DNA from: Candidatus Gygaella obscura
GTDB lineage: Bacteria; Omnitrophota; Gorgyraeia; Gygaellales; Gygaellaceae
Length of the DNA: 64,000 nt
Assembly: GCA_030765485.1 (NCBI GenBank)
Contig: JAVCCR010000031.1
Location: forward strand, 17,359 to 81,358
Direction: 5' to 3'
A program made the translations under genes and the position numbers. Each line of letters opens with the position of its first letter. The first letter of the stretch is position 1. Shown here piece after piece: positions 8,898 through 62,463 of this stretch. The notes under the pieces were generated by a model, which had not been told where the DNA came from, did not search any database, and saw nothing but the letters and a program-made list of their open reading frames with translations.

Positions 8898-10709
8898 GTG
8901 ATAAAATATTTCGCTATGAAAGACTATTTGAAGTTGTTGAAGTTTGTAAAATCATATTGGTTTTTATTCATAATTGCCGCAGTTTTTATGGGTTTTACTG
9001 CCATCTTTGATGGTGCCTCGATTGGCATGATCGTTCCTTTGGCTGATAATGTTTTAACAGGCAAAAAAATAGTTGTTCCTGTTGAACTACCTCTTTTTTT
9101 GGATAGTTTTATAAATACAGTTAACCAAATGGCGCCTTTGTTGTTGTTAAAGATAATGGCTTTTGTGGTTTTGGCAGTGATTTTTCTAAAAGGTGTGGTA
9201 AGTTTTGTGTACAGTTATCTTATGTCTGATATAGGCCAGAAAGTTATGCGCGATATGCGCGCCATGCTTTATGGAAAGTTTTTGGATTTTTCGCTTGATT
9301 TCTATTCTAGAAAAAAAGCAGGGGAGCTTATTTCTAGGATTACAAATGATGTGCGTGTAGTTGAGAATGCAGTTTCATATGGGTTTACAGATCTTATCTA
9401 TCAATCTTTTCAGATAGTTGTTTTTACCTGCGTGGTTTTATTTATCAATTGGAAGCTGTCACTTTTTATTTTTGTAGCTTTGCCTTTATTGGTTATTCCG
9501 ATTGTAAAGGTGGGGAAAAAATTACGTAAGCTTTCTAAGGTTTCACAGGAAAAGATGGCTGATATAAATTCTTCTATAAATGAAACTATTTTTGGTATTA
9601 GAATCGTTAAGGCTTTTTGTGCCGAGCAGTATGAAAAAAACAAGTTCAATATGTTTAATATCAGTTATTATAAGGTGATGATGAAATCTATCAAAAGAAC
9701 GCTTATTTTATCTCCGGCAACGGAATTCGTCGGTGCAGCTGCAGGGATATTTGTGTTTTTCTTTGGTGGCAAAGAGGTAATTGAAGGAAGAATGTCTTTT
9801 GGGGTCTTTGGTCTATTTTTAGGTTCGTTATTATCAATGATTAGACCTTTTAAGAAATTAGGTCAGGTTAATTCTTTAATCCAACAGGCAGTTGCAGCCA
9901 GCGTGAGAATCTATGAGATAATCGATGAGCCGCCTTCTATTGTTGATACCGAAAATGCGGTAAAGTTAGAGGCTTTTAATGAAAAAATAGTTTTTGATAA
10001 TGTAAGATTTAGTTATGAGGTTCAGGAAGTTTTAAAAGGAATTAATTTGACGGTCAATAAAAACGAATTTATTGCAATAGTTGGTCCTAGCGGAGCAGGT
10101 AAAAGTACGCTTTTAGATTTGATTCCCAGGTTTTACGATCCGACAGGTGGAGGGATTACAATTGACGGTAGGGATGTAAGAGGATATAGCATCTTTTCTT
10201 TACGTAGACAGATCGGCATAGTTTCACAGGAGACAATTCTTTTTAATGATTCGGTAAAAGCAAATATTGCTTATGGTGTTAGCAATTATTCATCAGATGA
10301 TATAATGTCTGCTGCTAAAAAGGCTAATGCGCACGAGTTTATCATGAATCTGTCCAATGGATACGATACGGTTATCGGAGATAGAGGTTTTAAGCTTTCG
10401 GGTGGAGAAAAACAGCGTTTGGCTATAGCGCGGGCTATGCTAAAAAACCCGCAGATACTCATTTTAGATGAAGCAACAAGCCAGTTGGATACACAGTCAG
10501 AGCGGCTTGTTCAAGATGCATTGGATAGATTAATGGAGTCAAGGACTGTATTTGTTATAGCGCATAGACTTTCGACTGTAAAAAATGCCGATAGGATAAT
10601 GGTTATTGATAAAGGAAGCCTTGTTCAGCTTGGAACGCATACAGAATTAGTTAATAAAGAAGGCGTATATAAACATCTTTATGATATGCAGTTTGTTGAA
10701 AAGTCATAA
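8898..10709 (+). CDS. msbA: MsbA-like lipid A/lipid exporter, ABC transporter permease-ATPase fusion
   Basis: 603 aa. Six-TM N-terminal domain plus NBD with Walker A 'GPSGAGKST', signature 'LSGGEKQRLAIARAML', Walker B 'ILILDEATS'. The ORF-track start is GTG at 8898. ATG at 8916 ('MKDYLKLLKF...') is an alternative start. A ttgata/taaaat promoter-like pair sits immediately upstream. Confidence 0.85.
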   Translation: MIKYFAMKDYLKLLKFVKSYWFLFIIAAVFMGFTAIFDGASIGMIVPLADNVLTGKKIVVPVELPLFLDSFINTVNQMAPLLLLKIMAFVVLAVIFLKGVVSFVYSYLMSDIGQKVMRDMRAMLYGKFLDFSLDFYSRKKAGELISRITNDVRVVENAVSYGFTDLIYQSFQIVVFTCVVLFINWKLSLFIFVALPLLVIPIVKVGKKLRKLSKVSQEKMADINSSINETIFGIRIVKAFCAEQYEKNKFNMFNISYYKVMMKSIKRTLILSPATEFVGAAAGIFVFFFGGKEVIEGRMSFGVFGLFLGSLLSMIRPFKKLGQVNSLIQQAVAASVRIYEIIDEPPSIVDTENAVKLEAFNEKIVFDNVRFSYEVQEVLKGINLTVNKNEFIAIVGPSGAGKSTLLDLIPRFYDPTGGGITIDGRDVRGYSIFSLRRQIGIVSQETILFNDSVKANIAYGVSNYSSDDIMSAAKKANAHEFIMNLSNGYDTVIGDRGFKLSGGEKQRLAIARAMLKNPQILILDEATSQLDTQSERLVQDALDRLMESRTVFVIAHRLSTVKNADRIMVIDKGSLVQLGTHTELVNKEGVYKHLYDMQFVEKS

Positions 10710-10859
10710 AAACCCAAATAAAATCGGTTTTATTTAGAATTTTTTCCTCATTTTCCACATTTTATTAAATAAAAACTATTTTATAAAAAATCTTGGCTTT
10801 TTTTGGTAATTATGGTATATTGACGTTTCACTTTAAAAAAATGGAGGAAGTTAAATAAA

Positions 10860-11711
10860 ATGGTTAATGAGCTTATTAAGAAGTTACTGGAAGCAGGGGT
10901 TCATTTTGGTCACCAGACAAAGCGATGGAATCCCAAGATGAAGAAGTTCATTTTTGGCGAACGAAGCGGAATCTACATAATTGATTTAGAGAAAACCGCC
11001 GAGTGTGTCGAGAAAGCGAAGTCTTTTTTACAAGATTTAGCTACCAAGGGGGAAAACATTCTTTTTGTCGGTACAAAGAAGCAAGCTCAGCAGATAATCA
11101 AAGAAGAGGCGCAGCGCGCTTCAATGTTCTATGTTCATCATAGATGGCTGGGAGGATTACTGACTAATTTTCAGACAATCAACAAGTCAATCAAAAGATT
11201 CAAGGAAATCCAGAAGATGGAAGAGGATGGCACCTTCGATAATCTTGCTAAAAAGGAAGTTTTGATATTGAAGAAAGAGAAGGAAAAGTTTAGTAAGAAT
11301 TTAAGCGGTATCATTAATATGGAAAAAATCCCCGCAGCTGTTTTTATTATTGATGCCAAAAACGAAGAAACAGCGGTTAAAGAAGCAAAAAAGCTTAATA
11401 TCCCGATTGTTGCTTTAATCGATACTAATTGTAATCCTGATTTGATTGATTATCCTATTCCCGGTAATGATGACGCCATGAAGGCAGTTAAGCTTATTGT
11501 TTCAATGATGGCTGATGCGATTATCGAAGGAAGGAAAGATTTTTTATCGTATCTTTCTCAAGAAGGCGTAAAAAGAGAGGAAGAAGCTGCCTTAAAATCT
11601 GAATCAGGAGAAGAAGTTGAGAATTCTGAAGGAGAGATAGAGAAAGTAGACGGAGAAGAGAAGAAAAAAAGCAAAAAAGTAAGGCAAGTTAAAGAAAAAG
11701 ACGAAAATTAA
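10860..11711 (+). CDS. rpsB: 30S ribosomal protein S2
   Basis: 283 aa. '[37 protein letters not shown]' is canonical S2. Acidic C-terminal tail. Confidence 0.95.
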
Positions 11712-27836: not shown

Positions 27837-29669
27837 ATGAAGAAAACCTTAACCTTTCTTTTAATTGGTACGTTTTTTATTATTTTGTTGTCAGCTGGGT
27901 TTTATTTTCTGCAGCAGAAGAAAACCTCGCTTGAGTTTACGGAATTGGCTGAACTTGTTTCTCAAGATGCAATGGCCTATATTTATGCGGATAATTTAAA
28001 TGAAGTTTTTGGTGAAATTACTCAGACTGCTTTAGCAAAAAATATCATCAAGTCTAGCCCTTGGAAGAATTTTATTAATTCAGATAAAGGAAAAAATGAA
28101 TATAAAAAGGCTTTACAGATAAAGGATTTGGTTTTAAGCGTGTTAAAGAAAAGATACTCTATAGCTTTTTACTCAAGAGAAAAAGTTGAGGTTGATTTTC
28201 TGCATTTGGTAGAATTAACGCCCGATAGCAGATTTAAGGAAAAAATATTAAAAATATTTTTGGACAAGAGTGGAAAAACAGATATTAAAAGTTCAAAATA
28301 TAAAAAGTTTGTCATCAATACAGTATATTTGGATAATTTCAATCTGTATTATACCGTTGCGGGCAGTATCGCTTTAATATCCAATAACCAACAACTTGTA
28401 AAAGATGCTTTGGATTTAGGTAGTAGTAGAAAAGATAAGTCTCTTGCCGATAGTAATCGTGTAAATAATATAAGGAAGAAGTTTAATAAGACCGAGCGTT
28501 TTATGTGGGCTTGGTTTGATGCAAGAAAATGGCAGGAGGTTTCTCAACAAGCTTTATTAAAGGAAAATAAAGATAATGCATTAGATGAGCAGTTAATCAA
28601 TGAGCTTAAGAGCCCTTTTAGCGATGTATGTTTGGAGTGTGTTTTTGATAATGGGTTTGAAATAAGAATAATTTCTATGGTCGATAAGTCCTTAACAAGC
28701 GATGATGATCAAATTAAGATATATAATCTTTTTGCCGATAAGATATCCGATAAGAGGCTGCTTAATGTTTTCCCCAAACAGTCTTTGGCTTTGGCCAGTG
28801 TCCATATTGAAAGTGTTTTAGATTGGTACGAATTATTTAAGGACTATCTGGACACACCTTTATTAAAATCACCTATTATGGGCAGTCAAGATTCTTTTAA
28901 AATAAGTGATTTTAAAAATAATGTTTTAGATTACTGCGGAATTGATTTAGAAAAAGAGGTTTTATCAAATATCGGTAAGGAATTAAGTGTCGGTTTTATT
29001 GGTTTTGAAAATTTCTCCATGCCTGGTTTAAACAAGATGCCTGGTAAGGTTAATTTAAGTATTCCTTTGCCTCAGTTGTTGTTAGCTTTCGAAGTTAGGG
29101 AAGCAACAAAGGCAAAAGATACAATGAAGAAGTTATATAATAAAGTGATATCTGATCGCAATGAGCAGATGTTTTCCCATATACAGATTCCGGAAACAGA
29201 AGAAAGCGATGAATCTGCATTTAAGATTCCAGAGTTTGAAATTCAAGAACGTGATTACAAAGGAAGTACAATCTATCAGGTGGGTATAAATAGTCCAGAG
29301 CTTCAAGGCAAGGCATCCTTAGCATCTTTGATGATGTTTCCCAGTTTTACAGTAAAAAATAATGATTTTCTTATCAGTTTTCCTTCATTGTCAGTGGACA
29401 GGGCTTTGGATGATTATGATACAAAACAAAATTCAATAAAAGATAATAGAAAAATATCCGATTTGTTAGATTCGGATTATACTTTTATGTTTTTTGTTGA
29501 TGTTAATAATATTATAAGTTCATTGGAGTTTATTTTAAAGGTTTTGCCGATACATGAAAGTATTTCCGAGGTTATAGATATTATAGCTTGTATTGATTTT
29601 GTAGCCTCGAGGATGGTTAATAAAAGCGAATACGCTGAGTCAAATCTTATCATAAAGTTAAAAAAGTAA
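27837..29669 (+). CDS. Hypothetical N-terminally anchored/exported 610-aa protein of unknown function
   Basis: Signal-anchor 'MKKTLTFLLIGTFFIILLSAGFYFL'. No catalytic motifs recognised. Sits between ilvC and leuA. Confidence 0.5.
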   Translation: MKKTLTFLLIGTFFIILLSAGFYFLQQKKTSLEFTELAELVSQDAMAYIYADNLNEVFGEITQTALAKNIIKSSPWKNFINSDKGKNEYKKALQIKDLVLSVLKKRYSIAFYSREKVEVDFLHLVELTPDSRFKEKILKIFLDKSGKTDIKSSKYKKFVINTVYLDNFNLYYTVAGSIALISNNQQLVKDALDLGSSRKDKSLADSNRVNNIRKKFNKTERFMWAWFDARKWQEVSQQALLKENKDNALDEQLINELKSPFSDVCLECVFDNGFEIRIISMVDKSLTSDDDQIKIYNLFADKISDKRLLNVFPKQSLALASVHIESVLDWYELFKDYLDTPLLKSPIMGSQDSFKISDFKNNVLDYCGIDLEKEVLSNIGKELSVGFIGFENFSMPGLNKMPGKVNLSIPLPQLLLAFEVREATKAKDTMKKLYNKVISDRNEQMFSHIQIPETEESDESAFKIPEFEIQERDYKGSTIYQVGINSPELQGKASLASLMMFPSFTVKNNDFLISFPSLSVDRALDDYDTKQNSIKDNRKISDLLDSDYTFMFFVDVNNIISSLEFILKVLPIHESISEVIDIIACIDFVASRMVNKSEYAESNLIIKLKK

Positions 29670-32581: not shown

Positions 32582-33397
32582 ATGTTTAATACAATTATTA
32601 TGTTTTTATTTGGGTTAATTGTGGGAAGTTTTTTGAATGTTTGTATTTTCCGCATGCCCAGGGGGATTTCAGTGGTAAAGCCCAGATCATTTTGCCCGAA
32701 TTGTAAGAAGATGATCCGCTGGTATGAGAATATTCCTTTGTTAAGTTATATCGCACTGCGCGGTGAATGCCCTAATTGTAAAGCTAGAATTAGTTTCCGT
32801 TATTTTTTTGTTGAGCTGATTACTGGAATTGGGTTTTTAGCACTTTATTTTGAATTTTCTTTAACCTTGGAGTTTTTTGCAATCCTAGTATTGATGTCCG
32901 GTCTTATAATTGCTACTTTTGTAGATATAGATTTTCGTGAGATACCGGATGAGGTTACTATGGGCGGAATGGTAGTGGGGCTTTTATTCGGGCTGATAAA
33001 AAGTTTTACAACCGGTTTTAGTTTAAGTTGGAATCTTCCAATTGTAAAGTCGCTTGTGGGTTTACTTGTTGGTGGAGGGGTTCTTTATCTTACTGGACTT
33101 TTTGGTAACTTTTTATTTTTTAAGCTCATGAAAAGAGATAATATTGACGGAGAGACGGAAAGCATGGGTGGGGGAGATATAAAACTTCTGGCTATGATCG
33201 GCAGTTTCCTAGGTTGGGAAATGGCATTATTGGTATTTTTTATTGCTCCCTTTATAGGTTCTTTTGCAGGAATCTATGAATTAGTAAAGAAAAAAAAACA
33301 TACGATTCCTTATGGTCCGTCTATTGCCTTAGCGAGCGTGATTTCAATTTTCTGGGTAGATAGAATCGTATTTTGGCTTTTTGGCATTAGAATGTAA
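32582..33397 (+). CDS. pilD: Type IV prepilin leader peptidase (A24 family)
   Basis: 271 aa. N-terminal tetra-Cys zinc site 'CPNCKKMIRW...CPNCKARI'. Catalytic Asp regions 'TFVDIDFREIPDE' and 'GGGDIKLLAMIG'. Confidence 0.85.
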   Translation: MFNTIIMFLFGLIVGSFLNVCIFRMPRGISVVKPRSFCPNCKKMIRWYENIPLLSYIALRGECPNCKARISFRYFFVELITGIGFLALYFEFSLTLEFFAILVLMSGLIIATFVDIDFREIPDEVTMGGMVVGLLFGLIKSFTTGFSLSWNLPIVKSLVGLLVGGGVLYLTGLFGNFLFFKLMKRDNIDGETESMGGGDIKLLAMIGSFLGWEMALLVFFIAPFIGSFAGIYELVKKKKHTIPYGPSIALASVISIFWVDRIVFWLFGIRM

Positions 33398-34549: not shown

Positions 34550-35059
34550 ATGAAAAATATCTATTTAGTAGGTTTTATGGGGACAGGTAAAACCGCAGTT
34601 GGCCGTATTACAGCCAGACTTTTGTCCAGAGATTTTGTGGATTTGGATATTTCAATAGAGACTTTAGAGTCAAGTAGCATTAATGATATTTTTCGCAAAA
34701 AAGGCGAAGTGTTTTTTAGAGATTTAGAAACCAAGTATCTTAATGACGTTTCTCAAAAAAATAATCTTATTGTTGCCTGCGGAGGCGGGATTGTTATAAA
34801 AAAAGATAATATCGATATTATGAAAAATACCGGTTTAGTTATTTGTTTAAAAGCTGATGCTTCTGTTATTTTTGAAAGAGTTAAATTAAATAAAAATCGT
34901 CCTCTTCTAAACGTAGAAGAGCCGTTAAAAAGGATAAATGAGCTTCTTGAAAAAAGAAGATTCTTCTATGGGCTTTCAGATTTCCAGCTAGATACGTCTA
35001 GCCTTAGCGAAGAACAAGCAGCAGGTATGATAGTTGAAATTGTAAAGAATAATGAATGA
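34550..35059 (+). CDS. aroK: Shikimate kinase
   Basis: 169 aa. P-loop 'LVGFMGTGKTAVGR'. Confidence 0.85.
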   Translation: MKNIYLVGFMGTGKTAVGRITARLLSRDFVDLDISIETLESSSINDIFRKKGEVFFRDLETKYLNDVSQKNNLIVACGGGIVIKKDNIDIMKNTGLVICLKADASVIFERVKLNKNRPLLNVEEPLKRINELLEKRRFFYGLSDFQLDTSSLSEEQAAGMIVEIVKNNE

Positions 35060-36179
35060 TAAAGAAGCTTTTATATTATTGAACATGGTTTCTGGTTTGG
35101 GGATTAAGAGACTTAATCTTTTATTGGAAACTTTTGGTTCAGCTGTTGCTATTTTAACATCAAAACTTGAAGATCTGCAAAAGCTTCCTTCAATCGGTTT
35201 TAATATCGCCTTAGGTATAAGGAAAGTAAATGACACTCAATTGCTTGAGCAGGAATTTAAACTGATTAGGGATAATTCGGTTGTTGTGCATAATTTTTTT
35301 GATGATGAGTATCCCTTTTCTTTAAAACAGATTTATGACCCTCCGATATTGATTTACAGAAAAGGAAAAATTGGCACCTGCAATAATGTAGGTGTTGGTA
35401 TAGTTGGTTCTAGGAAAGCTTCAAGTTATGGTTTAAAGATGGCTAGGGATTTTTCCTCTAAATTGGCAGAGGCTAAGATAGTTGTTGTTTCTGGCTTGGC
35501 TCGGGGTATTGATACTGCATCTCATAAGGCTGTTTTAGAGTCAAGAGGAGCTACGGTTGCGGTTTTAGGAAGCGGTTTGGCAAATATATATCCTGTGGAA
35601 AATAAGGCTTTGGCTGAACAGATAACAAAGACTGGTGAATTGATTTCTGAATTTCCTATGAAGGAAATTCCCAAGGCGAATAATTTTCCTAGAAGAAACC
35701 GTATTATCAGCGCTTTGTCTAGAGTTGTTTTGGTAGTTGAGGCAGCGCAAAAAAGCGGTGCCTTAATTACTGCAGATTTTGCCCTTGAGCAGGGAAAAGA
35801 TGTCTATGCTGTTCCTGGGGATTTGGATAATCCTAATTCTGCAGGGACTAATAATCTTATTAAGCAAGGTGCTGGGTTGATAGAAAGCGCAGAAGAATTA
35901 TTAAAAGAATTAAGTCTTGATATAAAAAAGGATCTGGATAGAAAAATAGATAAAAACAAAAAAGGATTATTTACCAGTATGTCTTTAAGTGAAGAACAGC
36001 TTAGGGTGATTAGTATTCTATCGGATGATCCTGTTGATATGGAAAATATTGTTCAAGCGGTTAAAATAAACCCAGACAAGCTGATGGATACACTTATACA
36101 GCTGGAAATGAATAATCTTATTAAGCAGCTTCCGGGTAAACGTTTTGTATTAAAAAAGGAGTCTTTTTTATATGAGTAA
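35052..36179 (+). CDS. dprA: DNA-processing protein A (Smf)
   Basis: 375 aa. 'GIVGSRKASSYGLKMARDFSSKLAEAKIVVVSGLARGIDTASHKA' Rossmann-like DprA core. C-terminal winged helix. Confidence 0.85.
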   Translation: MNDKEAFILLNMVSGLGIKRLNLLLETFGSAVAILTSKLEDLQKLPSIGFNIALGIRKVNDTQLLEQEFKLIRDNSVVVHNFFDDEYPFSLKQIYDPPILIYRKGKIGTCNNVGVGIVGSRKASSYGLKMARDFSSKLAEAKIVVVSGLARGIDTASHKAVLESRGATVAVLGSGLANIYPVENKALAEQITKTGELISEFPMKEIPKANNFPRRNRIISALSRVVLVVEAAQKSGALITADFALEQGKDVYAVPGDLDNPNSAGTNNLIKQGAGLIESAEELLKELSLDIKKDLDRKIDKNKKGLFTSMSLSEEQLRVISILSDDPVDMENIVQAVKINPDKLMDTLIQLEMNNLIKQLPGKRFVLKKESFLYE

Positions 36180-38136
36180 AACACTGGTTATCGTTGAGTC
36201 TCCCACAAAAGCAAAGACAATCCAAGGCATTTTAGGAAAAGATGTAAAAACAATACCTAGCATGGGTCACATTATTGATCTTCCTCAGAAACAGATCGGT
36301 ATAGAAGTTGAGGATAATTTCAAGCCGACTTATACTGTTTTAAAAGGAAGAGCTAAGGTCCTGCAGCAGATAAAAAAAGCTGCCAAGGATGCGGATAAAA
36401 TTTATCTTGCCACTGACCCTGATAGAGAGGGCGAAGCTATTGGTTGGCACTTAAAAGAAAAATTAAAGCTGAAAAAGAAATATTTTCGTGTTATCTTGCA
36501 TGAGATAACTAAGCCGAGTATAAAAGAGGCGTTTGCTCATCCTGAGGAGCTTGATCTAAACAAAGTTAAGGCTCAGCAGACCAGAAGAATATTGGATAGG
36601 CTCGTAGGGTATTTTTTAAGTCCTTTTCTCTGGCGTAAGGTTGCAAGGGGTTTAAGCGCTGGAAGGGTTCAGTCAGTTGCTTTACGTTTAATAGTAGAAC
36701 GGGAGCGTAAGATTACTGAATTTAAACCTAAAGAATATTGGCAGATAGAGGCACAGCTAAATAAGAAAAAAGGTAAAGGAAAGTTTATTGCGAAATTAAA
36801 CAAGATTAACGGTGCTAATTATGAATTGCAAAACGAGACGGAAACTAAAAAAGTAACCGACGATATAAAAAATAAAGATTTTAAAGTTGTAAAGGTTGTG
36901 CTTAAACAGAAAAAACGATACGCCTCAGCACCTTTTATCACAAGCACTCTTCAGCAGGAAGCTTTCAATAAGCTTAGGTTTATTGCTAAAAGGACAATGA
37001 TGGTTGCCCAACAGCTATATGAAGGGATTGAGCTTCCTAAAGACGGTTCAGTTGGTCTTATTACTTATATGAGAACAGATTCTACCAGAGTGTACCAACC
37101 TTTTATTGATCATGCCAGGAACTTTATTGCAGAAAAGTTCGGTAAGGAATATCTTCCGGAAAAGGCTAATTATTTTAAGGTTAGAAAGACTGCTCAGCAG
37201 GCGCACGAAGCTATAAGACCGACGTCATTAGAAAAGACGCCTGATTCAATAAAGGAATTTTTAACCCATGATCAGTTTAGGCTGTATCAGCTTATTTATA
37301 ATAGGTTTTTAGCTAGTCAGATGAATCCAGCCAGGTTTAATGCTACAAGTGTAGTGATAAATGTCGGTATCTATGAATTTAGCGCAAGCGGACAGATATT
37401 GTTATTTGACGGCTTTTTAAAGCTTTATAATATTGAAGATGATGAAAAACAAGATAACAACAAAAATAAATTACCTGTTTTAAGCGAAAATGAATTATTA
37501 GATCTTGAGAAATTGCTTCCGCAGCAGAGTTTTACAAAGCCGCCTGCAAGATTTTCCGAAAGCTCACTTATCAAGATTTTAGAAGAGCTGGGAGTAGGAA
37601 GACCGTCTACATACGCACCGATTATACAGACTTTGGTAATACGTAGCTATGTCCATAGACTTAGAGGATATTTTGAGGCAACGGAATTAGGTATGACAGT
37701 TAGTGATATTTTGGTTGATAATTTTCCAAAGGTAATGGATGTGAAATTTACAGCTGGGCTTGAGGAAGAGCTTGATCAAATAGAGGAAGGTAAAATTGAT
37801 TATTTGAAAGTGTTGAATGATTTTTATACTCCTTTCAAGGAAAACTTAGATTATGCAAAAAAACACGTGAAAAAAGAGGTTATTACTGCTGACGAGAATT
37901 GTCCGCAGTGTGGAAGCGTACTTGTTTATAAATGGGGTAGGCGCGGACGCTTTTTAAGCTGTTCTAAGTTTCCTACGTGTAAATTCTCTAAATCCATAAC
38001 TACCGGCGTTAAGTGTCCGTCGGAAGACTGTGATGGCGAATTAATCCAGAGGCATTCTAAAAGAGGCGTATTTTACGGATGTTCTAAGTTTCCCAAATGC
38101 AGGTATATTACAGATAAGCTTCCTCAGTCGGAGTAA
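36172..38136 (+). CDS. topA: DNA topoisomerase I
   Basis: 654 aa. Toprim 'TLVIVESPTKAKTI', 'DPDREGEAIGWH', active-site Tyr region 'GLITYMRTDSTR'. Two C-terminal C4 zinc ribbons. Confidence 0.9.
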   Translation: MSKTLVIVESPTKAKTIQGILGKDVKTIPSMGHIIDLPQKQIGIEVEDNFKPTYTVLKGRAKVLQQIKKAAKDADKIYLATDPDREGEAIGWHLKEKLKLKKKYFRVILHEITKPSIKEAFAHPEELDLNKVKAQQTRRILDRLVGYFLSPFLWRKVARGLSAGRVQSVALRLIVERERKITEFKPKEYWQIEAQLNKKKGKGKFIAKLNKINGANYELQNETETKKVTDDIKNKDFKVVKVVLKQKKRYASAPFITSTLQQEAFNKLRFIAKRTMMVAQQLYEGIELPKDGSVGLITYMRTDSTRVYQPFIDHARNFIAEKFGKEYLPEKANYFKVRKTAQQAHEAIRPTSLEKTPDSIKEFLTHDQFRLYQLIYNRFLASQMNPARFNATSVVINVGIYEFSASGQILLFDGFLKLYNIEDDEKQDNNKNKLPVLSENELLDLEKLLPQQSFTKPPARFSESSLIKILEELGVGRPSTYAPIIQTLVIRSYVHRLRGYFEATELGMTVSDILVDNFPKVMDVKFTAGLEEELDQIEEGKIDYLKVLNDFYTPFKENLDYAKKHVKKEVITADENCPQCGSVLVYKWGRRGRFLSCSKFPTCKFSKSITTGVKCPSEDCDGELIQRHSKRGVFYGCSKFPKCRYITDKLPQSE

Positions 38137-38138
38137 TT

Positions 38139-38999
38139 ATGCAGCGTTATCTTGAAAAATTCCTGAGATATCTTGAAATAGAGAAGAACTATTCTTCCCA
38201 TACCCTGCTTAATTACGGAATAGACCTTAAAGATTTTACAAAATATATTGCTGAGACGCCGCTTGAGAAGGTAAGCTATCTTATCTTGAGAAAATACCTG
38301 GCACTGCTTAAAGAAAGAGGTCTTAAAAACAGATCTATTGCCAGAAAGCTTGCTAGCATTAGGAGTTTTTATCGTTTTTTAACTAGAGAAGGCTATGTTA
38401 AGGAAAATCCTACTCTTGTATTGGCAAGCCTTAAATTGGATAAAAAGCTTCCTCTTTTTCTAACTGAAGAACAGATGAATAATTTAATTGAGGCTCCGGA
38501 TTTAAAAAGTAAGCTTGGTTTAAGGGATAAGGCAATACTGGAGTTACTTTATTCAACAGGGATGCGTATAGGTGAGATGACGGCTTTAGATATTGATGCC
38601 GTAGATTTTATATCCGGAGTAATCAAGGTTGCCGGTAAGGGCAAAAAAGAGCGGCTTGTTCCTGTTGGCGATAAGGCAATAGAAGTACTTAGACAGTATC
38701 TTGATAAACGAAAGAAGCAGTCAAAGAAGCTTTTTCTGAATAAAAACAATACCCCTTTAGGCGCAAGGGGAGTAAGGGTTATCCTTGATAAATATATTCG
38801 TTTAACAGCGATTAAAGAGAAAATATCTCCACATACATTAAGACATTCTTTCGCAACTCATTTATTAAATAGGGGGGCTGATTTAAGGAGTGTCCAGGAA
38901 TTATTAGGGCATGCAAATATTGCTACAACCCAGATTTATACACATCTGACTACTCAGCGCTTGAAAGAAGTTTATAACAAGGCGCACCCGCGGGCATAA
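38139..38999 (+). CDS. xerC: Tyrosine site-specific recombinase XerC/XerD (chromosome dimer resolution)
   Basis: 286 aa. 'HTLRHSFATHLLNRGADLRSVQELLGHANIATTQIYTH' catalytic R-H-R-Y box. Sits in the conserved dprA-topA-xerC neighbourhood, so chromosomal rather than phage integrase. Confidence 0.85.
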   Translation: MQRYLEKFLRYLEIEKNYSSHTLLNYGIDLKDFTKYIAETPLEKVSYLILRKYLALLKERGLKNRSIARKLASIRSFYRFLTREGYVKENPTLVLASLKLDKKLPLFLTEEQMNNLIEAPDLKSKLGLRDKAILELLYSTGMRIGEMTALDIDAVDFISGVIKVAGKGKKERLVPVGDKAIEVLRQYLDKRKKQSKKLFLNKNNTPLGARGVRVILDKYIRLTAIKEKISPHTLRHSFATHLLNRGADLRSVQELLGHANIATTQIYTHLTTQRLKEVYNKAHPRA

Positions 39000-47214: not shown

Positions 47215-48241
47215 AGTTTATAAAAGAATTCTGGTTTTTAACGTCAATTGGCTTGGGGATGTGCTTTTTACCACTCCGGCAATACGTGTTTTAAGAAAAA
47301 GTTTTCCTGATAGTTATATTGCCTGTGCTGCGCCTGCCAGGTGCGCGCAGCTTTTAAAGAATAACCCTAGTATAAATGAGTTTATTTCTTTTGATGAAAG
47401 AGGCAGTTTCAAGAGTGTGTTTTCAAAGATAGCGTTTATTTTTTCTTTGAGAAAGAAAAAATTTGATGCGGTATTTTTATTTCACCGTTCCTTTACAAGA
47501 CTTATGATTTGTTTTTTTGCTGGGATAAAAAATAGAATTGGATATAGCCGCAGGAAGAATAATCTGCTGTTGACCGGTAAGATCGATCCTATTGAGCGTG
47601 ATTCTGTTCATCGTATTGATTACTTTTTGAATATCGTCAGGCCTTATGTTGGTAAGATTGATGATAAATCTTATGAACTTAAGGTAAACAAAAGAGACAT
47701 CTTAGATGTAAGGAATATATTGGAAGAAAAAGGAGTGAAAAGTTCTGATCAATTGGTTGTGCTTAATCCTGGTGCAAATTGGCCTCTTAAGCGTTGGCCG
47801 GTTGATAATTTTGCAAAGCTTATTAATCTTTTGTCAAAAGAACCTGGTTTAAAAGTTATTGTTGTTGGGGCAAAAGAAGATCAAGGTTTGGTGGAGAAGA
47901 TCTTAAGTCTATCTAAATCTGAAGCGGTTGTATTAACAGGGCAGCTTAATCTTATTCAGCTTGCTGCATTGTTTAGTTTAAGCAGTATTGTCATAAGCGC
48001 TGATTCAGGGCCGATGCATATTGCCATTGCAGTTGAGGTCAGTGTTATTGCATTGTTTGGGCCCACTGATTATAGGATTACAGGACCTGTTGATGTTGAT
48101 AAAAACACTGTTTTGAAAAAAGATATAGATTGTGATATCCCGTGTTTTAAACTTGATTGCGCGGATAATATCTGTATGAGTCAGATAACTGCGGAAGAAG
48201 TACTTGAAGTCATAAAAACAAAACTATTAATGCGCCCATAG
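47207..48241 (+). CDS. ADP-heptose:LPS heptosyltransferase (GT9, WaaC/WaaF-like)
   Basis: 344 aa. 'ILVFNVNWLGDVLFTTPAIRVLRKSFPD', 'VLNPGANWPLKRWP', 'SADSGPMHIAIAV'. Confidence 0.8.
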   Translation: MTKVYKRILVFNVNWLGDVLFTTPAIRVLRKSFPDSYIACAAPARCAQLLKNNPSINEFISFDERGSFKSVFSKIAFIFSLRKKKFDAVFLFHRSFTRLMICFFAGIKNRIGYSRRKNNLLLTGKIDPIERDSVHRIDYFLNIVRPYVGKIDDKSYELKVNKRDILDVRNILEEKGVKSSDQLVVLNPGANWPLKRWPVDNFAKLINLLSKEPGLKVIVVGAKEDQGLVEKILSLSKSEAVVLTGQLNLIQLAALFSLSSIVISADSGPMHIAIAVEVSVIALFGPTDYRITGPVDVDKNTVLKKDIDCDIPCFKLDCADNICMSQITAEEVLEVIKTKLLMRP

Positions 48242-48305
48242 CTCAATTGGATAGAGCGCCAGTCTTCGGAACTGGATGTTGCAGGTTCGATTCCTGCTGG
48301 GCGCG
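48232..48305 (+). tRNA. tRNA-Arg (anticodon TCG)
   Basis: gcgccca acceptor, D-arm gctcaattggatagagc, anticodon stem ccagt/actgg with loop cTTCGga, T-arm gcaggttcgattcctgc. Overlaps the heptosyltransferase stop by ~10 nt. Confidence 0.85.
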
Positions 48306-48312
48306 AAAAAAA

Positions 48313-51957: not shown

Positions 51958-52320
51958 ATGTTTGCTAATATTATTGGATGGCTTTTAATCATATGGGGGA
52001 TACTTTTTATTATGAAGCCGGAATTTTTAAGAAAAAAGCTTCAGAAAAAAAGCCAGAAAACCATTAAAAAAATAATTCTGGGGATTACAGTTTCGTTTTC
52101 AGTGCTTATCATTATTGCCGCTTTTAAGACAGAAGGCATGGTTTCTAAGATTTTAGCTGTTTTGGCTATTATTGCCGTTATCAAGGCATTTTTGATGGTT
52201 AAATCAAAGGTTTCGGATAAACTTATCGAGTGGTATATGAAACTGTCGGTTAAGGTATTGGTTTTAGGCGGTGCAATGCAGGTTTTAATAGGCGTATCAA
52301 TTTTGGTAGTTAATAAATAA
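51958..52320 (+). CDS. Hypothetical small membrane protein
   Basis: 120 aa, three TM helices. A good SD 'aaaggagggg' upstream. Its last ~32 codons are duplicated at 53711-53807. Confidence 0.45.
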   Translation: MFANIIGWLLIIWGILFIMKPEFLRKKLQKKSQKTIKKIILGITVSFSVLIIIAAFKTEGMVSKILAVLAIIAVIKAFLMVKSKVSDKLIEWYMKLSVKVLVLGGAMQVLIGVSILVVNK

Positions 52321-52353
52321 AGTCTATGAGAAGATTTGTTATTGTTAGTTTAA
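52224..52353. repeat. 130-bp direct repeat, copy A (3' end of the 120-aa gene + intergenic + truncated 5' copy of the DUF481 gene)
   Basis: Aligned by eye to 53711-53840: ~95% identity (about 6 mismatches in 130 nt). Confidence 0.8.
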
Positions 52354-52405
52354 TAGTCACGATTAGTTTAATGATTTTTAATATGTTTAATTAAGTTATG
52401 GAGCA

Positions 52406-53653
52406 GTGATGAAAAAAATTATTTTATTTATATTTTTTCATTTTTTATATTCTTTTTCTTTTGCCCAAGAGGTTGAGGAAATCCGCATTGTTACTTATTA
52501 TCCAGCCCCTTACGGAAGTTATACTGAGTTGACTACTGAGCGAATGAAGATCGGTCCGACTTTTTCTCAGAGTGGTACAACTGTTGGTGACGGTAATTTA
52601 ATTGTAGAAAATAATGTTGCAATAGGCACGGATACGCCAATTAGTGGAGTACCAGGATCAGATAAGATTTTGACGATTGGTGGCACAAACCCGACACTAA
52701 GGTTTGATGATTTAGATGTAGGTGATAATGATATGGAAATACACGTACAAAACGGAGAGATGGGTTTTTATGAGCTAAGTACTTTAAGAATGATGTTAAA
52801 AGGGGGCTATTTGGGAATTGGTACGGATTCTCCTTCTGACAAATTGACTGTAGAAGAAGGAGTTATTAATATAAGGTCAGCAGGTGGTGCTTTGAAATTT
52901 ACAGATACCAATGAAAATGATGCAGGGCAAATTAGGTTAGCTACGCTATCGGTAAAAGGGCTAGAATTTTTGGTTGATTCAAATGGTGATAAGATAGCAG
53001 AACTTATTGCGATGAATATAGATCCTGACGGTAATGTGGGTATTGGTACAACTAACCCGGAAGCAAAGTTACATATTTTAGACACTAGCGATGGTTCTTC
53101 CGGAGGTTCGGCGCCAGCTGGTTCGGATAGATTGGTTATAGAAGGAGGGTTTAACGCCTATATCAATGAGATTTCCCATCCCAATGCATGGGGAGGAATT
53201 CTCTTTTCCGATGATGTTAGGGGAAGAGGATCAATTAAATATGGACACTTTAACGATGTGCTTGAGATTAACGTTGCCGGTTCATCGGCGATGTCCATTG
53301 ATAAAAGCGGTAATATCACGGGAACTTATGGAAGTTATCATGTCGCTTCGGATGAGCGGTTAAAGAAAGATATTACTACGATTCAGGATGCATTGGATAA
53401 AGTTTTAAGTTTGAGGGGTGTGAATTTTCACTGGAAAGATTCTAATTTAAATCAAGGTAAATTGCGTATGGGGTTAGTTGCACAAGAGGTTGAAAAAGTT
53501 GTTCCCGAGGTTGTTCATACTGTAGATGATGAAATGCAGACAAAGGCAGTTGAATATCAATATTTGGTTGGTTTATTGATAGAAGCAATTAAAGATCAGC
53601 AGAAGCAGATAAATAATTTAAAAACAGAAGTTGAAATACTTAAGAATAATTAA
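52406..53653 (+). CDS. Secreted fibre-like protein with C-terminal peptidase S74 (intramolecular-chaperone, self-cleaving) domain
   Basis: 415 aa. Signal peptide 'MMKKIILFIFFHFLYSFSFAQE'. Repeated 'N-V-(A/G)-IGT-(D/T)-x-P' motifs at three positions, resembling tail-fibre/beta-helix repeats. C-terminus 'ASDERLKKDITTIQDALDKVLSLRGVNFHWKD...GLVAQEVEKVVPEVV' matches the endosialidase-type chaperone domain that autocleaves at Ser. Confidence 0.75.
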   Translation: MMKKIILFIFFHFLYSFSFAQEVEEIRIVTYYPAPYGSYTELTTERMKIGPTFSQSGTTVGDGNLIVENNVAIGTDTPISGVPGSDKILTIGGTNPTLRFDDLDVGDNDMEIHVQNGEMGFYELSTLRMMLKGGYLGIGTDSPSDKLTVEEGVINIRSAGGALKFTDTNENDAGQIRLATLSVKGLEFLVDSNGDKIAELIAMNIDPDGNVGIGTTNPEAKLHILDTSDGSSGGSAPAGSDRLVIEGGFNAYINEISHPNAWGGILFSDDVRGRGSIKYGHFNDVLEINVAGSSAMSIDKSGNITGTYGSYHVASDERLKKDITTIQDALDKVLSLRGVNFHWKDSNLNQGKLRMGLVAQEVEKVVPEVVHTVDDEMQTKAVEYQYLVGLLIEAIKDQQKQINNLKTEVEILKNN

Positions 53654-53710
53654 TAAAAAACAATATGAAAAAAATACTTAACTGGCAGTTTCATATACCA
53701 CTCGATAAGT

Positions 53711-53840
53711 TTATCGAGTGGTATATGAAGTTACCGGTTAAGGTTTTGGTTTTAGGTGGTGCAATGCAGGTTTTAATAAGCGTATCAATTTTGGTAGTTA
53801 ATAAATAAAGTCTATGAGAAGATTTGTTATTGTTAGTTTA
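53711..53840. repeat. 130-bp direct repeat, copy B (orphan 3' fragment of the 120-aa gene + intact start of the DUF481 gene)
   Basis: Contains an out-of-context '...EWYMKLPVKVLVLGGAMQVLISVSILVVNK*' remnant with no start, and the intact ATG of the 53814 gene. Confidence 0.8.
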
Positions 53841-54719
53841 TTAGTTTTAGTTTTAGCAAGCATTTGTTTTGCTCAAGATATTTCAAAGGTCGTACTGGAT
53901 AATGGCGATATTATAAATGCAAAGATCGTTCAAGAGAATAAAGATAGCATAACTATAGAAAGCGATATCTTAGGCAGACTTTATATTGAGAAGAAACATG
54001 TTAAAGATATCGTTTTTTTAGGGCAAGATGGGGTCAAGGAAAAGCCTCAGAAATCAGCAAAAGACTCTTTGTGGAAGAAAGAAATTTCTTTGGGTTTAAA
54101 TAAAGTTAGTGGCAATACGAGAAGCTCTAAGACGAACAGTTCAATATTTTTAAACAGAAAAACTTCTACTGATGAGTTTACCATCAAAGCCAATACTCTT
54201 TACGGCTCATCCAGCAATAAGATGGATACGCAGAAATGGTATACGATGCTGCGTTATGCCTTTAGTTTCAAAGATAAAAGGTGGTACAACTTTTATAAGC
54301 TTGAAAGCGATCACGATAGGTTTACGAATATAGATTATAGAATTACTCCGACAACCGGATTAGGTTATTGGTTTAGTGATGCAGATAATTTTAAGGCAAT
54401 GGTAGAATTAGGTGTAGGTTGTGAACACACAAGCTTCAGGGATAATACAAAAAATAAGAATGAGGCGATTTTGATTCCCCGTGCATTTTTAGAAAAGCAG
54501 CTTTTTGATAAGTTAAGGTTTTCCCAGGAATTAGTATTATACCCAAAGCTTGAGAATGCCGGAGACTTCAGGCTGCATTCTGAGAGTGTAGTTAAAAATT
54601 ATATAGATGAGAATTCATTCATCGCCTTAAGTTTTATAGATGATTATAATTCAAAACCCGATAGCAATACAAAAAAGAACGATTCTCGGTTTATGACTAG
54701 TTTAAATTATGAGTTTTAG
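53814..54719 (+). CDS. DUF481-family putative outer-membrane beta-barrel protein
   Basis: 301 aa. Signal peptide 'MRRFVIVSLLVLVLASICFAQD'. N-terminal 'VVLDNGDIINAKIVQENKDSITIESDILGRLYIEKKHVKDIVF' beta-hairpin module typical of DUF481. Alternating-hydrophobic strands. C-terminal 'LNYEF' aromatic terminus. Confidence 0.6.
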   Translation: MRRFVIVSLLVLVLASICFAQDISKVVLDNGDIINAKIVQENKDSITIESDILGRLYIEKKHVKDIVFLGQDGVKEKPQKSAKDSLWKKEISLGLNKVSGNTRSSKTNSSIFLNRKTSTDEFTIKANTLYGSSSNKMDTQKWYTMLRYAFSFKDKRWYNFYKLESDHDRFTNIDYRITPTTGLGYWFSDADNFKAMVELGVGCEHTSFRDNTKNKNEAILIPRAFLEKQLFDKLRFSQELVLYPKLENAGDFRLHSESVVKNYIDENSFIALSFIDDYNSKPDSNTKKNDSRFMTSLNYEF

Positions 54720-54730
54720 GAGTCAAAATA

Positions 54731-55474
54731 ATGAAGAAAATTCTTAATTGGCAGCTTATTTTAGGATTATTATTGATTGCGCTTTCTGCAGGAGTTTATT
54801 ATCTTCATTTTTTGATCTTTAGAGACATTCACCATATATTTATATATCTTGTGGGAGATATTGCTTTTGTATTCTTTGAGGTTTTGCTGGTTACTTTAGT
54901 GTTACATAACCTGCTGCATTTTCGTGAAAAGAGGTCTCTTTTAAAAAAACTTAACATGGTAATAGGTTCTTTTTTCACTGAATTGGGCACCGATTTATTA
55001 AAGACTTTTTCCGAGTTTGATCATAATAGCAAGATATTAGCAAAGGCGTTGATTGTTTCTGATAAATGGCTTGAAAAAGATTTTATAAGAGTGTGCAGGT
55101 TGGTAAAAAGACATACAAGTGATTTAAATATAAACAAAGATAGCCTTAATTCATTAAAAGAGTTCTTGAATAGGAAAAGAGATTTTCTGTTAAGTTTATT
55201 AGGTAATTCTAATCTCCTAGAACATGAGTCTTTTACCGATTTATTATGGGCGGTTTTTCATCTTACAGAAGAACTTTCTTACCGGGTTGATTTTAAACAG
55301 TTGCCCCAGACAGATATAGAGCACTTAACTAATGATGTGAAGCGGGTCTACGCACAGCTTTTGTCCGAATGGATTATGTACATGGCTCATTTAAAGAATA
55401 ATTATCCATATTTATTTTCATTGGCTTTAAGGACTAATCCTTTTGATAAAGAAGTTTCTGTTGTTGTAGCATAG
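54731..55474 (+). CDS. Hypothetical membrane protein (N-terminal TM pair + cytoplasmic helical domain)
   Basis: 247 aa. No recognisable motif. Confidence 0.45.
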   Translation: MKKILNWQLILGLLLIALSAGVYYLHFLIFRDIHHIFIYLVGDIAFVFFEVLLVTLVLHNLLHFREKRSLLKKLNMVIGSFFTELGTDLLKTFSEFDHNSKILAKALIVSDKWLEKDFIRVCRLVKRHTSDLNINKDSLNSLKEFLNRKRDFLLSLLGNSNLLEHESFTDLLWAVFHLTEELSYRVDFKQLPQTDIEHLTNDVKRVYAQLLSEWIMYMAHLKNNYPYLFSLALRTNPFDKEVSVVVA

Positions 55475-62317: not shown

Positions 62318-62387
62318 AAGTTAATTAATTGACAATTAAGGGCTGTTGATGTAATATACCACTCACTGTTTTAGATATTCTACCTTG

Positions 62388-62463
62388 CGCCTGTAGCTCA
62401 ATTGGATAGAGCATCAGCCTACGGAGCTGGTTGTTGCAGGTTCGAATCCTGCCAGGCGCATAA
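62388..62463 (+). tRNA. tRNA-Arg (anticodon ACG), the substrate of TadA
   Basis: gcgcctg acceptor, D-arm gctcaattggatagagc, anticodon loop cTACGga, T-arm gcaggttcgaatcctgc, caggcgc-a. Confidence 0.85.

Follow-up and report, generated by a model that had tools for sequence, protein, structure and literature searches.

How does a single gene for a surface fibre come to lie between two copies of the same chromosomal junction? This question is raised by a locus of Candidatus Gygaella obscura, an Omnitrophota metagenome-assembled genome (MAG) originally described from Ace Lake, Antarctica, within the stretch of 64,000 nucleotides (nt) that was analysed as a whole (hereafter, the window). In it, a gene predicted to encode an S74-domain fibre protein is enclosed by direct repeats, and the region is probably the scar of an insertion-type homologous recombination (i.e., a Campbell-like, "ends-in" single crossover) by which two diverged alleles of a single chromosomal slot came to lie head to tail. 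The repeats (copy A, 52216-52357, and copy B, 53704-53845, both on the forward strand) are 142 nt long, are offset by 1488 nt and align without gaps and with 10 mismatches (93% identity; E = 1.7e-56 in a self-blastn of the window), their longest mismatch-free block being 61 nt (52292-52352); the same self-comparison of the 64 kb gave no third copy. The original prediction, which had been drawn from the letters of the sequence, had placed them at 52224-52353 and 53711-53840, where 122 of 130 positions are identical (~94%); the repeats were thus confirmed, with true ends that lie slightly further out. Each copy comprises the last 35 codons of a gene for a 120-amino-acid (aa) membrane protein (gene A), a 5-nt spacer and the first 11 codons of a DUF481 gene. 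At copy A, gene A is complete (51958-52320, forward strand; no Pfam family was assigned to it in a profile scan) and DUF481 is reduced to a 22-codon open reading frame (ORF) (MRRFVIVSLIVTISLMIFNMFN and a stop; 52326-52394, forward strand), whose homology to DUF481 ends at 52357 and which terminates 11-14 nt before the fibre start. At copy B, the 3' end of gene A stands alone and is followed by the complete DUF481 gene (53814-54719, forward strand, 301 aa; PF04338, E = 1.7e-35) and then by a gene for an MJ1433-like membrane protein (54731-55474, forward strand, 247 aa; assigned from the precomputed Pfam annotation MJ1433_N/C, with no match in our own hmmscan). These contents are those foreseen, as is the presence of one inserted gene: between the copies, behind a unique 51-nt leader (52358-52408, forward strand) in which a GGAG (52400-52403) precedes a GTG (52406) and an ATG (52409) start, the ORF list gives the fibre gene and no other (52409-53653, forward strand, 414 aa; Pfam PF13884, E = 8e-18).

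What lies at the right-hand end of the insert is more intricate than the original prediction had described, since an inverted arm, a palindrome and the carriage of fragments from both neighbouring genes had been overlooked. After the fibre stop codon (53651-53653), an 11-nt spacer is followed by a copy of the start of the MJ1433-like gene (53662-53691, forward strand), by the first 39 nt of the repeat in inverted orientation (53677-53715, reverse strand, 95% complementary) and by copy B. The MJ1433-like fragment agrees with the true gene start at 21 of 24 positions (53665-53688 against 54731-54754), which is the sole match with five or fewer mismatches in the window, and the three differences are all synonymous, both sequences encoding MKKILNWQ. 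It also agrees at 26 of 30 positions (53662-53691) with a relic of the same gene start in a relative (locus L019, from 11283), and the spacing between the preceding stop and the ATG is 11 nt at all three sites (after the fibre gene, after DUF481 in the window and after DUF481 in L019). Judged by these matches, the MKKILNWQ fragment is a genuine copy of the start of the downstream gene and the point of a strand switch. Its likeness to the gene at 54731, which had been noticed beforehand, is therefore real; the "more than one recombination event" that had been read from it is not required, as the fragment is accounted for as the downstream end of the incoming allele.

The inverted arm that follows is an exact reverse complement of 52216-52245 (30 of 30 positions, a match obtained in none of 100 shuffles) and overlaps the MJ1433-like fragment by an imperfect microhomology of ~12-15 nt. 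Together with copy B it forms a near-perfect palindrome with 37-nt arms (53672-53747, centred on 53709/53710), built on a natural quasi-palindrome, GATAA-NN-TTATC, that is already found within gene A. A chimeric ORF of 47 codons (53665-53808, forward strand, present in the ORF list and annotated by NCBI as a hypothetical protein) starts with the MJ1433 start, reads through the inverted arm, continues into the orphan 3' end of gene A and stops 5 nt ahead of the DUF481 ATG, i.e., with the spacing that gene A has at the ancestral junction and in L019. At the three diagnostic sites where copy B differs from copy A (52242, 52243 and 52245) the inverted arm has the copy-A state in all cases, which indicates that 52216-53715 is of one contiguous type, whereas copy B and what follows it belong to the other block.

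Does this junction exist anywhere in an uninterrupted form? Of 5.8 billion proteins, only one is homologous to the product of gene A (78% identity); it is encoded in the Omnitrophota MAG GCA_018400015.1, and the locus of this only known relative (L019) was used for the empty-site comparison. Both genomes are syntenic over ~20 kb, a stretch that includes glycosyltransferases, VTT, a D-Ala ligase-like gene, Peptidase_Mx, gene A, DUF481, tRNA-Lys, archease, DUF4139, RtcB and SerRS. In L019, gene A (10001-10363) is directly followed, after the same 5 nt as in the window, by DUF481 (10369-11274), with no fibre, no duplication and no palindrome at the junction; each of the 142-nt repeats matches this one junction. 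The empty site that had been predicted for relatives is thus present. Relative to L019, no recipient DNA is missing at the window locus; sequence has been duplicated instead. Independent evidence that gene A, DUF481 and the third gene originally followed one another without interruption comes from the gene pieces in the window (a cut-off DUF481 start, an orphaned gene A end and a piece of the third gene), and DUF481 is, from this sequence comparison, the ancestral occupant of the slot. L019 itself does not hold the 247-aa MJ1433-like gene in the stretch that follows DUF481 (11275-11330): there is a relic of its start (ATGAGAAAAATATTTAACTGTCAG), 11 nt past the DUF481 stop, and then tRNA-Lys(CTT), which means that a deletion took place in this slot in the other lineage also.

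Are the two halves of the structure duplicates of one sequence, or two alleles with separate histories? In the frame of gene A, copies A and B differ at nine sites, six of them synonymous and three non-synonymous, and the ratio of the non-synonymous to the synonymous proportion of differences (pN/pS) is 0.14, in line with that between true orthologues (0.18-0.25). Pooling all duplicated coding pieces gives nine synonymous against four non-synonymous differences, a result whose probability is 1.6e-4 if both copies had been drifting and 0.004 if one of them had, as compared with 0.79 if both were constrained. The synonymous divergence between the duplicated pieces (pS ~0.27) is under half of that to the relative genome (0.63). 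Differences that are mostly synonymous imply that the divergence arose mainly while both versions belonged to working genes, and, on this sequence signature, the two halves of the structure derive from two diverged lineages. The left block, moreover, has partial copies of all three neighbour genes, so its origin was an allele of the same locus and not an unrelated circle. In more general terms, the ratio of synonymous to non-synonymous changes in orphan gene fragments can tell DNA of another lineage from a local duplication.

Two features expected of a Campbell-type insertion are found here, namely a chromosomal segment that is present twice, as flanking direct repeats, and an uninterrupted target in a relative (L019), and the closing joint of the inserted block is visible at 53662-53715. 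The original prediction had proposed the integration of a circular DNA; the topology and the insertion into an ancestral junction stand, whereas an autonomous or dedicated circular element does not, given that neither an integrase nor a transposase nor a phage gene lies nearby and that the cassette was found nowhere else. We infer the direction of the transfer, the order of the steps and the entry route of the DNA as follows. From the ancestral order of 120-aa gene, DUF481 and MJ1433-like gene, a fibre gene similar to the MAT fibres of Bdellovibrio would have replaced DUF481, from codon 12 to the stop, in a related lineage. The two alleles would then have met when a fragment of one, which began inside the 3' end of gene A and ended ~8 codons into the MJ1433-like gene, reached a chromosome with the other, most likely by the uptake of DNA from a relative. 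The 3' end of the fragment may have annealed, by the imperfect microhomology of ~12 nt, to the opposite strand of the 3' end of gene A, been extended by ~27 nt and turned at the quasi-palindrome GATAA-NN-TTATC, which would close the fragment onto its own start (a snap-back). A crossover inside the shared 142 nt would finally have inserted the whole block, leaving a duplicated junction, with a truncated DUF481 start at the left and an orphan gene end at the right.

Several points weigh against this sequence of events. The snap-back and the turn at the quasi-palindrome, which a single event needs, are plausible but complex, and two other fibre loci with stacked alleles (described below) have no inverted arm. 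The inverted arm was assigned to the copy-A type from three diagnostic sites, and a bias towards synonymous changes could in principle also result from selection on the chimeric ORF of 47 codons. We know of no demonstration of natural competence in Omnitrophota. No sequence of the donor or of an unduplicated fibre allele is on record, and there is no second strain of the species in public data; either block may have been the resident one.

Could the structure instead have arisen entirely in cis? In a tandem-inversion duplication (TID), a snap-back at the quasi-palindrome would have duplicated the segment from the 3' end of gene A through DUF481 to the 5' end of the MJ1433-like gene, most of the inverted middle copy would have been deleted, and the left DUF481 would later have been replaced by the fibre gene. 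TID by snap-back template switching is reportedly an established mechanism (the work of Kugelberg et al. 2010 is said to have described it). So is U-turn template switching (PMC4417113). The right junction looks as a TID would leave it: the two direct copies have a short inverted remnant between them, the join is palindromic and centred on a natural quasi-palindrome, and the 5' end of MJ1433 meets inverted gene A sequence at a microhomology. Nevertheless, the copies would have been identical at the start, and the 9:4 synonymous bias, to which the 8-codon MJ1433 fragment contributes three synonymous differences out of three, rejects the drift of a redundant copy (P = 0.004). A second replacement event, precise to the ORF, would be required, and after a foreign replacement of the left copy the inverted arm should match copy B, yet it matches copy A. 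At one of the other fibre loci (L112), furthermore, the same stacking is found at a pS of 0.35 and with no inverted arm. An origin in cis is, on balance, unlikely.

It is less credible still that the cassette is a small non-autonomous integrative element, with the repeats as attL and attR, a replacement 3' end for the target gene and a tyrosine recombinase acting in trans. The geometry, with the intact gene end at the left and the orphan end at the right, is certainly like that of islands in gene 3' ends, and a gene of the Phage_integrase family is present in the window at 38139-38999. The latter, however, encodes a 286-aa XerC/D-type protein beside dprA and topA and looks housekeeping; the DUF481 and MJ1433-like fragments that are carried along would be needless for an att site; the 10 mismatches between the repeats are scattered, with no defined core and divergent arms; and neither the cassette nor its ends have a second copy in the window, among the 5.8 billion proteins or among 2.9 million viral contigs. 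Apart from that housekeeping-type xerC/D gene next to topA, 13 kb away, the 64 kb contain no gene for an integrase, a transposase or a phage protein. An integrase-driven island, a prophage att site or an integrative mobile element exploiting Xer (IMEX) was accordingly rejected, no integrase being found within 13 kb and the cassette being unique in the databases searched. A transposon or insertion sequence was discarded too, as the only gene of the insert is the fibre, the inverted copy is at one end only and consists of target sequence, and the duplication of 142 nt is, as had been argued from the outset, too long for a transposase target site (the short duplications of transposons being of 2-15 bp). 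Other candidates fared no better: a diversity-generating retroelement is at odds with mismatches that run in both directions (A>G, C>T, G>A, T>C, A>T, etc.) and are not adenine-specific, and no reverse transcriptase was found among the window ORFs scanned; a prophage remnant is at odds with the core chromosome that makes up the window, with the absence of the fibre's N-terminal module (N-module) from viral contigs and with phage matches that are confined to the shaft and the S74 end.

Is the structure, then, real DNA? An assembly artefact would consist of two strain haplotypes concatenated by the assembler, or of an inverted junction that is a chimeric amplification product, and it could be suspected from the resemblance of the two halves to different alleles and from several contigs whose ends coincide exactly with the repeat or the palindrome (52321 in L009 and L011, 53715 in L017, and both ends of L018, which spans 52323-53809). 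Such breaks are what is expected of a genuine repeat. The arrangement is 100% identical in contigs of at least five assemblies (ERZ27315452 and ERZ27315476 in ENA, 3300025649 and 3300025697 in JGI, and SRR5458846 in Logan), and the recovery of the same arrangement in several independent assemblies means that it is not a one-off misassembly. The spanning contigs come from k=141 MEGAHIT, JGI and Logan assemblies of different samples or runs; the unique junction 53654-53715, which fits neither simple allele, is spanned identically by multiple assemblies; and the microhomologies are much shorter than any assembler k-mer. A sixth contig (L101, from ERZ27316532), equivalent to window positions 53519-54288, adds a private single-nucleotide polymorphism (SNP), C>A at 53686, which is the only sequence variant of the locus in public data. 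That an artefact accounts for the locus is thus extremely improbable. The SNP falls in the CAG that is common to the MJ1433 fragment and the inverted arm, and leads to Q8K in the 47-codon ORF. Population variants are otherwise lacking in public assemblies and protein clusters: the contigs are identical, the proteins of the locus are all singleton clusters, and there is neither an alternative cassette nor a presence/absence variant. Equally improbable is a programmed invertible segment, in which the inverted repeats 52216-52254 and 53677-53715 (39 nt, 95% complementary) that flank the fibre gene would flip its 1.42-kb segment on and off as the tail-fibre inversion switches of phages Mu and P1 do, given that there is no invertase gene nearby, that every contig of every assembly has a single orientation, that a flip would truncate the 120-aa gene and create a perfect palindrome of ~140 nt, and that the right arm is explained as a by-product of the junction.

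The insertion of one allele beside the other has some likely consequences for the expression of the genes involved. The 51-nt leader has no room for a promoter, so the fibre gene is probably co-transcribed with gene A, as far as the sequence allows us to judge; promoter and terminator scans gave counts equal to the shuffle expectation. The RNA of the palindrome region is predicted to fold into a hairpin of 21+9 bp followed by GUUUUGGUUUU (-45.4 kcal/mol, z = -7.1, none of 200 shuffles being as stable), and this new hairpin may terminate or process the transcript between the fibre gene and DUF481. The 47-codon ORF, with its stop 5 nt before DUF481, may preserve translational coupling. Finally, the 61-nt perfect block within the repeats would permit the RecA-dependent loss of the cassette, no such variant being on record.

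As for the cargo itself, the fibre has a layout composed of a signal peptide, an N-module of ~130 aa, a shaft with GNVGIGTxxPxxKL repeats and a C-terminal S74 domain, the latter covering profile positions 1-58 of 58 of PF13884. This domain opens with SDERLK (Ser314, codon 53348-53350); S314 and K319 are invariant in an alignment of 16 homologues, and the S74 end aligns to the phage tail-fibre chaperone 6F45 in a search of PDB sequences. By these features, the fibre is a Peptidase S74 intramolecular-chaperone protein with a predicted Ser-Lys dyad (SDxxxK). In sequence it also resembles the MAT prey-recognition fibres of Bdellovibrio: residues 101-243 match Bd2133 (8OND; phmmer E = 3.4e-8), and the shaft has the beta-helix and the V-G-G/N-pi-x-x-P-x-x-x-L capping motif of that group, as seen in the Bd2133 match and the GNVGIGTxxPxxKL repeats. 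The top Foldseek matches of the fibre model are likewise Bd2133, Bd3182, Bd1334 and Bd2439, with poor TM-scores; the AlphaFold model has a mean pLDDT of 57 and falls below 50 in the N-module, and the Bdellovibrio N-domain has no solved structure. The N-module (nt 52409-52801, to about codon 131), which carries the motif I(V/T)TYYP(A/S)PYG after the signal peptide, is the only part that the fibre has in common with a non-S74 paralogue of the relative (P0004, 403 aa, encoded between rho and rpmE at 10001-11212 of L020). The N-modules of both are ~85% identical in amino acids and 79% in DNA (over 52411-52801, from the ATG to near codon 131), a DNA identity that is about the genome-wide level between orthologues; this implies that the module is native to the clade and that the tips are swapped at the module boundary. 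No flanking repeats were found around P0004, and its upstream region has no similarity to the 51-nt leader.

The N-module is almost restricted to Omnitrophota and conserved across the phylum, with at least 211 confirmed matches among species-representative genomes and at least 298 in JGI metagenomes, and it is essentially absent from the 2.9 million viral contigs, the phage matches to the shaft and the S74 end reaching at most 45% identity. The proteins that carry it are often several per genome, often forming tandem arrays with different distal parts (e.g., L023, L027, L061, L087, L088, L125). In the protein database search there was no close homologue of the fibre or donor allele, no match exceeding 68% identity and that one being in the N-module alone, and a literature search found no paper linking Omnitrophota with tail-fibre genes. 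A large and nearly Omnitrophota-only family of fibres with the MAT layout emerges, encoded as single cassettes or arrays between housekeeping genes.

Is the stacking of alleles peculiar to this slot? In a recurrence scan, the upstream and downstream flanks of every ORF of at least 100 aa were compared in 160 fetched fibre loci, and a duplicated neighbour coding end was found for 2 of 124 fibre ORFs and for none of 757 other ORFs (Fisher p = 0.02; the numbers are small). Most of the repeats that flank fibre genes were rejected as tandem fibre paralogues with a common 5' module, those that flank other genes as repetitive extragenic palindrome (REP)- or terminator-like palindromes, and some apparent flank repeats as scaffold-gap artefacts. 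In the first of the two loci (L112, 2389-5295, recovered from three assemblies and seen also as L111 and L028), argG and argH are followed by a fibre gene, an in-frame orphan 3' end of argH of 62 codons, a second fibre gene with a different tip, and lysA. The orphan and the intact argH differ by 14 synonymous and 3 non-synonymous changes (pS 0.35, pN 0.02; P = 3e-5 against the drift of one copy), the ~35 nt past the first fibre gene resemble the start of the spacer past the second, and the orphan argH ORF has to the second fibre the relation that the 47-codon ORF has to DUF481. From its sequence, L112 is a second and clearer case of stacked alleles at a fibre slot. In the other locus (L070, 5480-6610), uvrB, a spacer, an orphan 5' end of coaX, a second uvrB 3' end, a 174-aa fibre and coaX follow one another, the orphan coaX end (80 nt, 97.5% identical) being fused to the second uvrB 3' end at a GCTAAAAAAA microhomology. 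Neither L112 nor L070 has an inverted arm.

The architecture of two diverged alleles stacked head to tail hence recurs, with a support of three loci in all. The original prediction had seen a hot-spot for the exchange of surface-protein cassettes; the two other fibre loci with a similar scar speak for it, while the locus itself yielded neither alternative cassettes nor presence/absence variants. It is widely suspected that Omnitrophota, which are small cells, live on or off other cells, and one might speculate that they routinely diversify their MAT-like fibres by "allele stacking", i.e., by taking up DNA of relatives that is added rather than swapped, with the ends of core genes as anchors. 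This generalization is no better than tentative, and as a part of it the old and new cassettes may be kept together and the in-frame orphan ends may be retained for translational coupling. If stacking were general, it would mark where these bacteria exchange and accumulate surface-recognition genes, with orphan core-gene ends as a handle for searching.

Some further observations concern the surroundings and the other genomes compared. In the window, a prepilin peptidase (A24) gene (32582-33397) is located slightly upstream of the cluster of dprA (35052-36179), topA (36172-38136) and the xerC/D-type gene (38139-38999); with DprA and a prepilin peptidase, genes for the uptake and processing of DNA are present in this genome. 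A 74-nt repeat with 85% identity (48231-48306 and 62386-62461) corresponds to two tRNA-Arg genes (anticodons TCG and ACG), two of the 10 tRNA genes in the window, which include four clustered tRNA-Ser genes at 60.8-63.0 kb. An ORF of 610 aa (27837-29669) amid amino-acid biosynthesis genes matches no Pfam family at E <= 1e-5. In other Omnitrophota, palindromic intergenic repeats of 60-95 nt (REP- or terminator-like) flank housekeeping genes in direct or inverted orientation, for example in L059 (4599-4693 and 5856-5948), L091 (3253-3313 and 4519-4579) and L083 (3631-3722 and 5861-5952).

Which known systems does this locus resemble? The mechanism preferred here, an insertion by single crossover, is already known, and what is new is the setting: MAT-like fibres of an uncultivated phylum, core genes as anchors and a signature of synonymous divergence. 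When linear DNA that was homologous to the chromosome at one end entered E. coli, it was mostly recircularised and integrated by a single crossover, duplicating 109-950 bp of the homologous locus (Amarir-Bouhram, Goin and Petit 2011, PMC3240628). The window would share with those integrants the one-sided homology, the RecA-type recombination and the lack of a dedicated recombinase, and its 142-nt duplication and single-gene insert fit them. It differs from them in that the event is natural and old enough to have been fixed in the population, in that the "foreign" DNA is the same locus in a diverged allelic form and in that the closing joint has a templated inverted segment instead of a simple ligation. 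Classical homology-facilitated illegitimate recombination (HFIR), much rarer in the same study, combines an insertion with a deletion and a microhomology of 3-10 bp (PMC3240628); it was rejected here, for no recipient DNA is deleted relative to L019, although the MJ1433 fragment does meet the inverted arm at a microhomology. That joint (53677-53747) is rather like the products of U-turn template switching, in which a 3' end pairs with the opposite strand at a short inverted microhomology and is then elongated (Zampini et al. 2015, PMC4417113), in that an inverted segment lies at a junction centred on short natural inverted repeats. U-turn switching, however, is purely in cis and acts on identical copies, whereas the copies in the window are allelic, so that only the joint fits. 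The locus is thus a natural case of duplicative, homology-anchored gene addition in which both joints can be read base by base, with an empty site for comparison.

Regarding the cargo, the MAT fibres are located on the surface of the predator Bdellovibrio and recognise prey (Caulton et al. 2024, PMC10769870), and they share with the fibre of the window a layout of signal peptide, conserved N-terminal module of ~130 aa (which need not be homologous between the two), the beta-helical shaft, the variable tip and the S74 domain with SDxxxK, and with its family the coexistence of S74 and non-S74 members with a common N-module (in the MAT case, within one genome). They belong, in contrast, to a different phylum and are of ~900-1000 aa, as compared with the 414 aa of the window fibre. 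Regarding the architecture, the closest parallel is that of the orphan-module arrays of Rhs, contact-dependent inhibition (CDI; cdiA-CT/cdiI) and type VI secretion system (T6SS) loci; in Vibrio cholerae, T6SS effector-immunity cassettes from other strains are added and the old ones are kept downstream (Kirchberger et al. 2017, PMC5361080). As in the fibre loci, those arrays have a conserved anchor and a repeated upstream piece before the retained old cassette, and the divergence points to different strains and not to duplication, L112 being the direct analogue. Their cargo is a toxin and its immunity protein, unlike the surface fibre considered here, and their anchor is the conserved body of the toxin gene, unlike the end of a housekeeping neighbour that serves in the fibre loci (plus the fibre 5' module in L112); in the window, moreover, the displaced occupant is an unrelated gene, DUF481. 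If it holds, allele stacking would be the fibre counterpart of the Rhs, CDI and T6SS orphan arrays, and a genomic signature of gene flow between strains in an uncultivated phylum.

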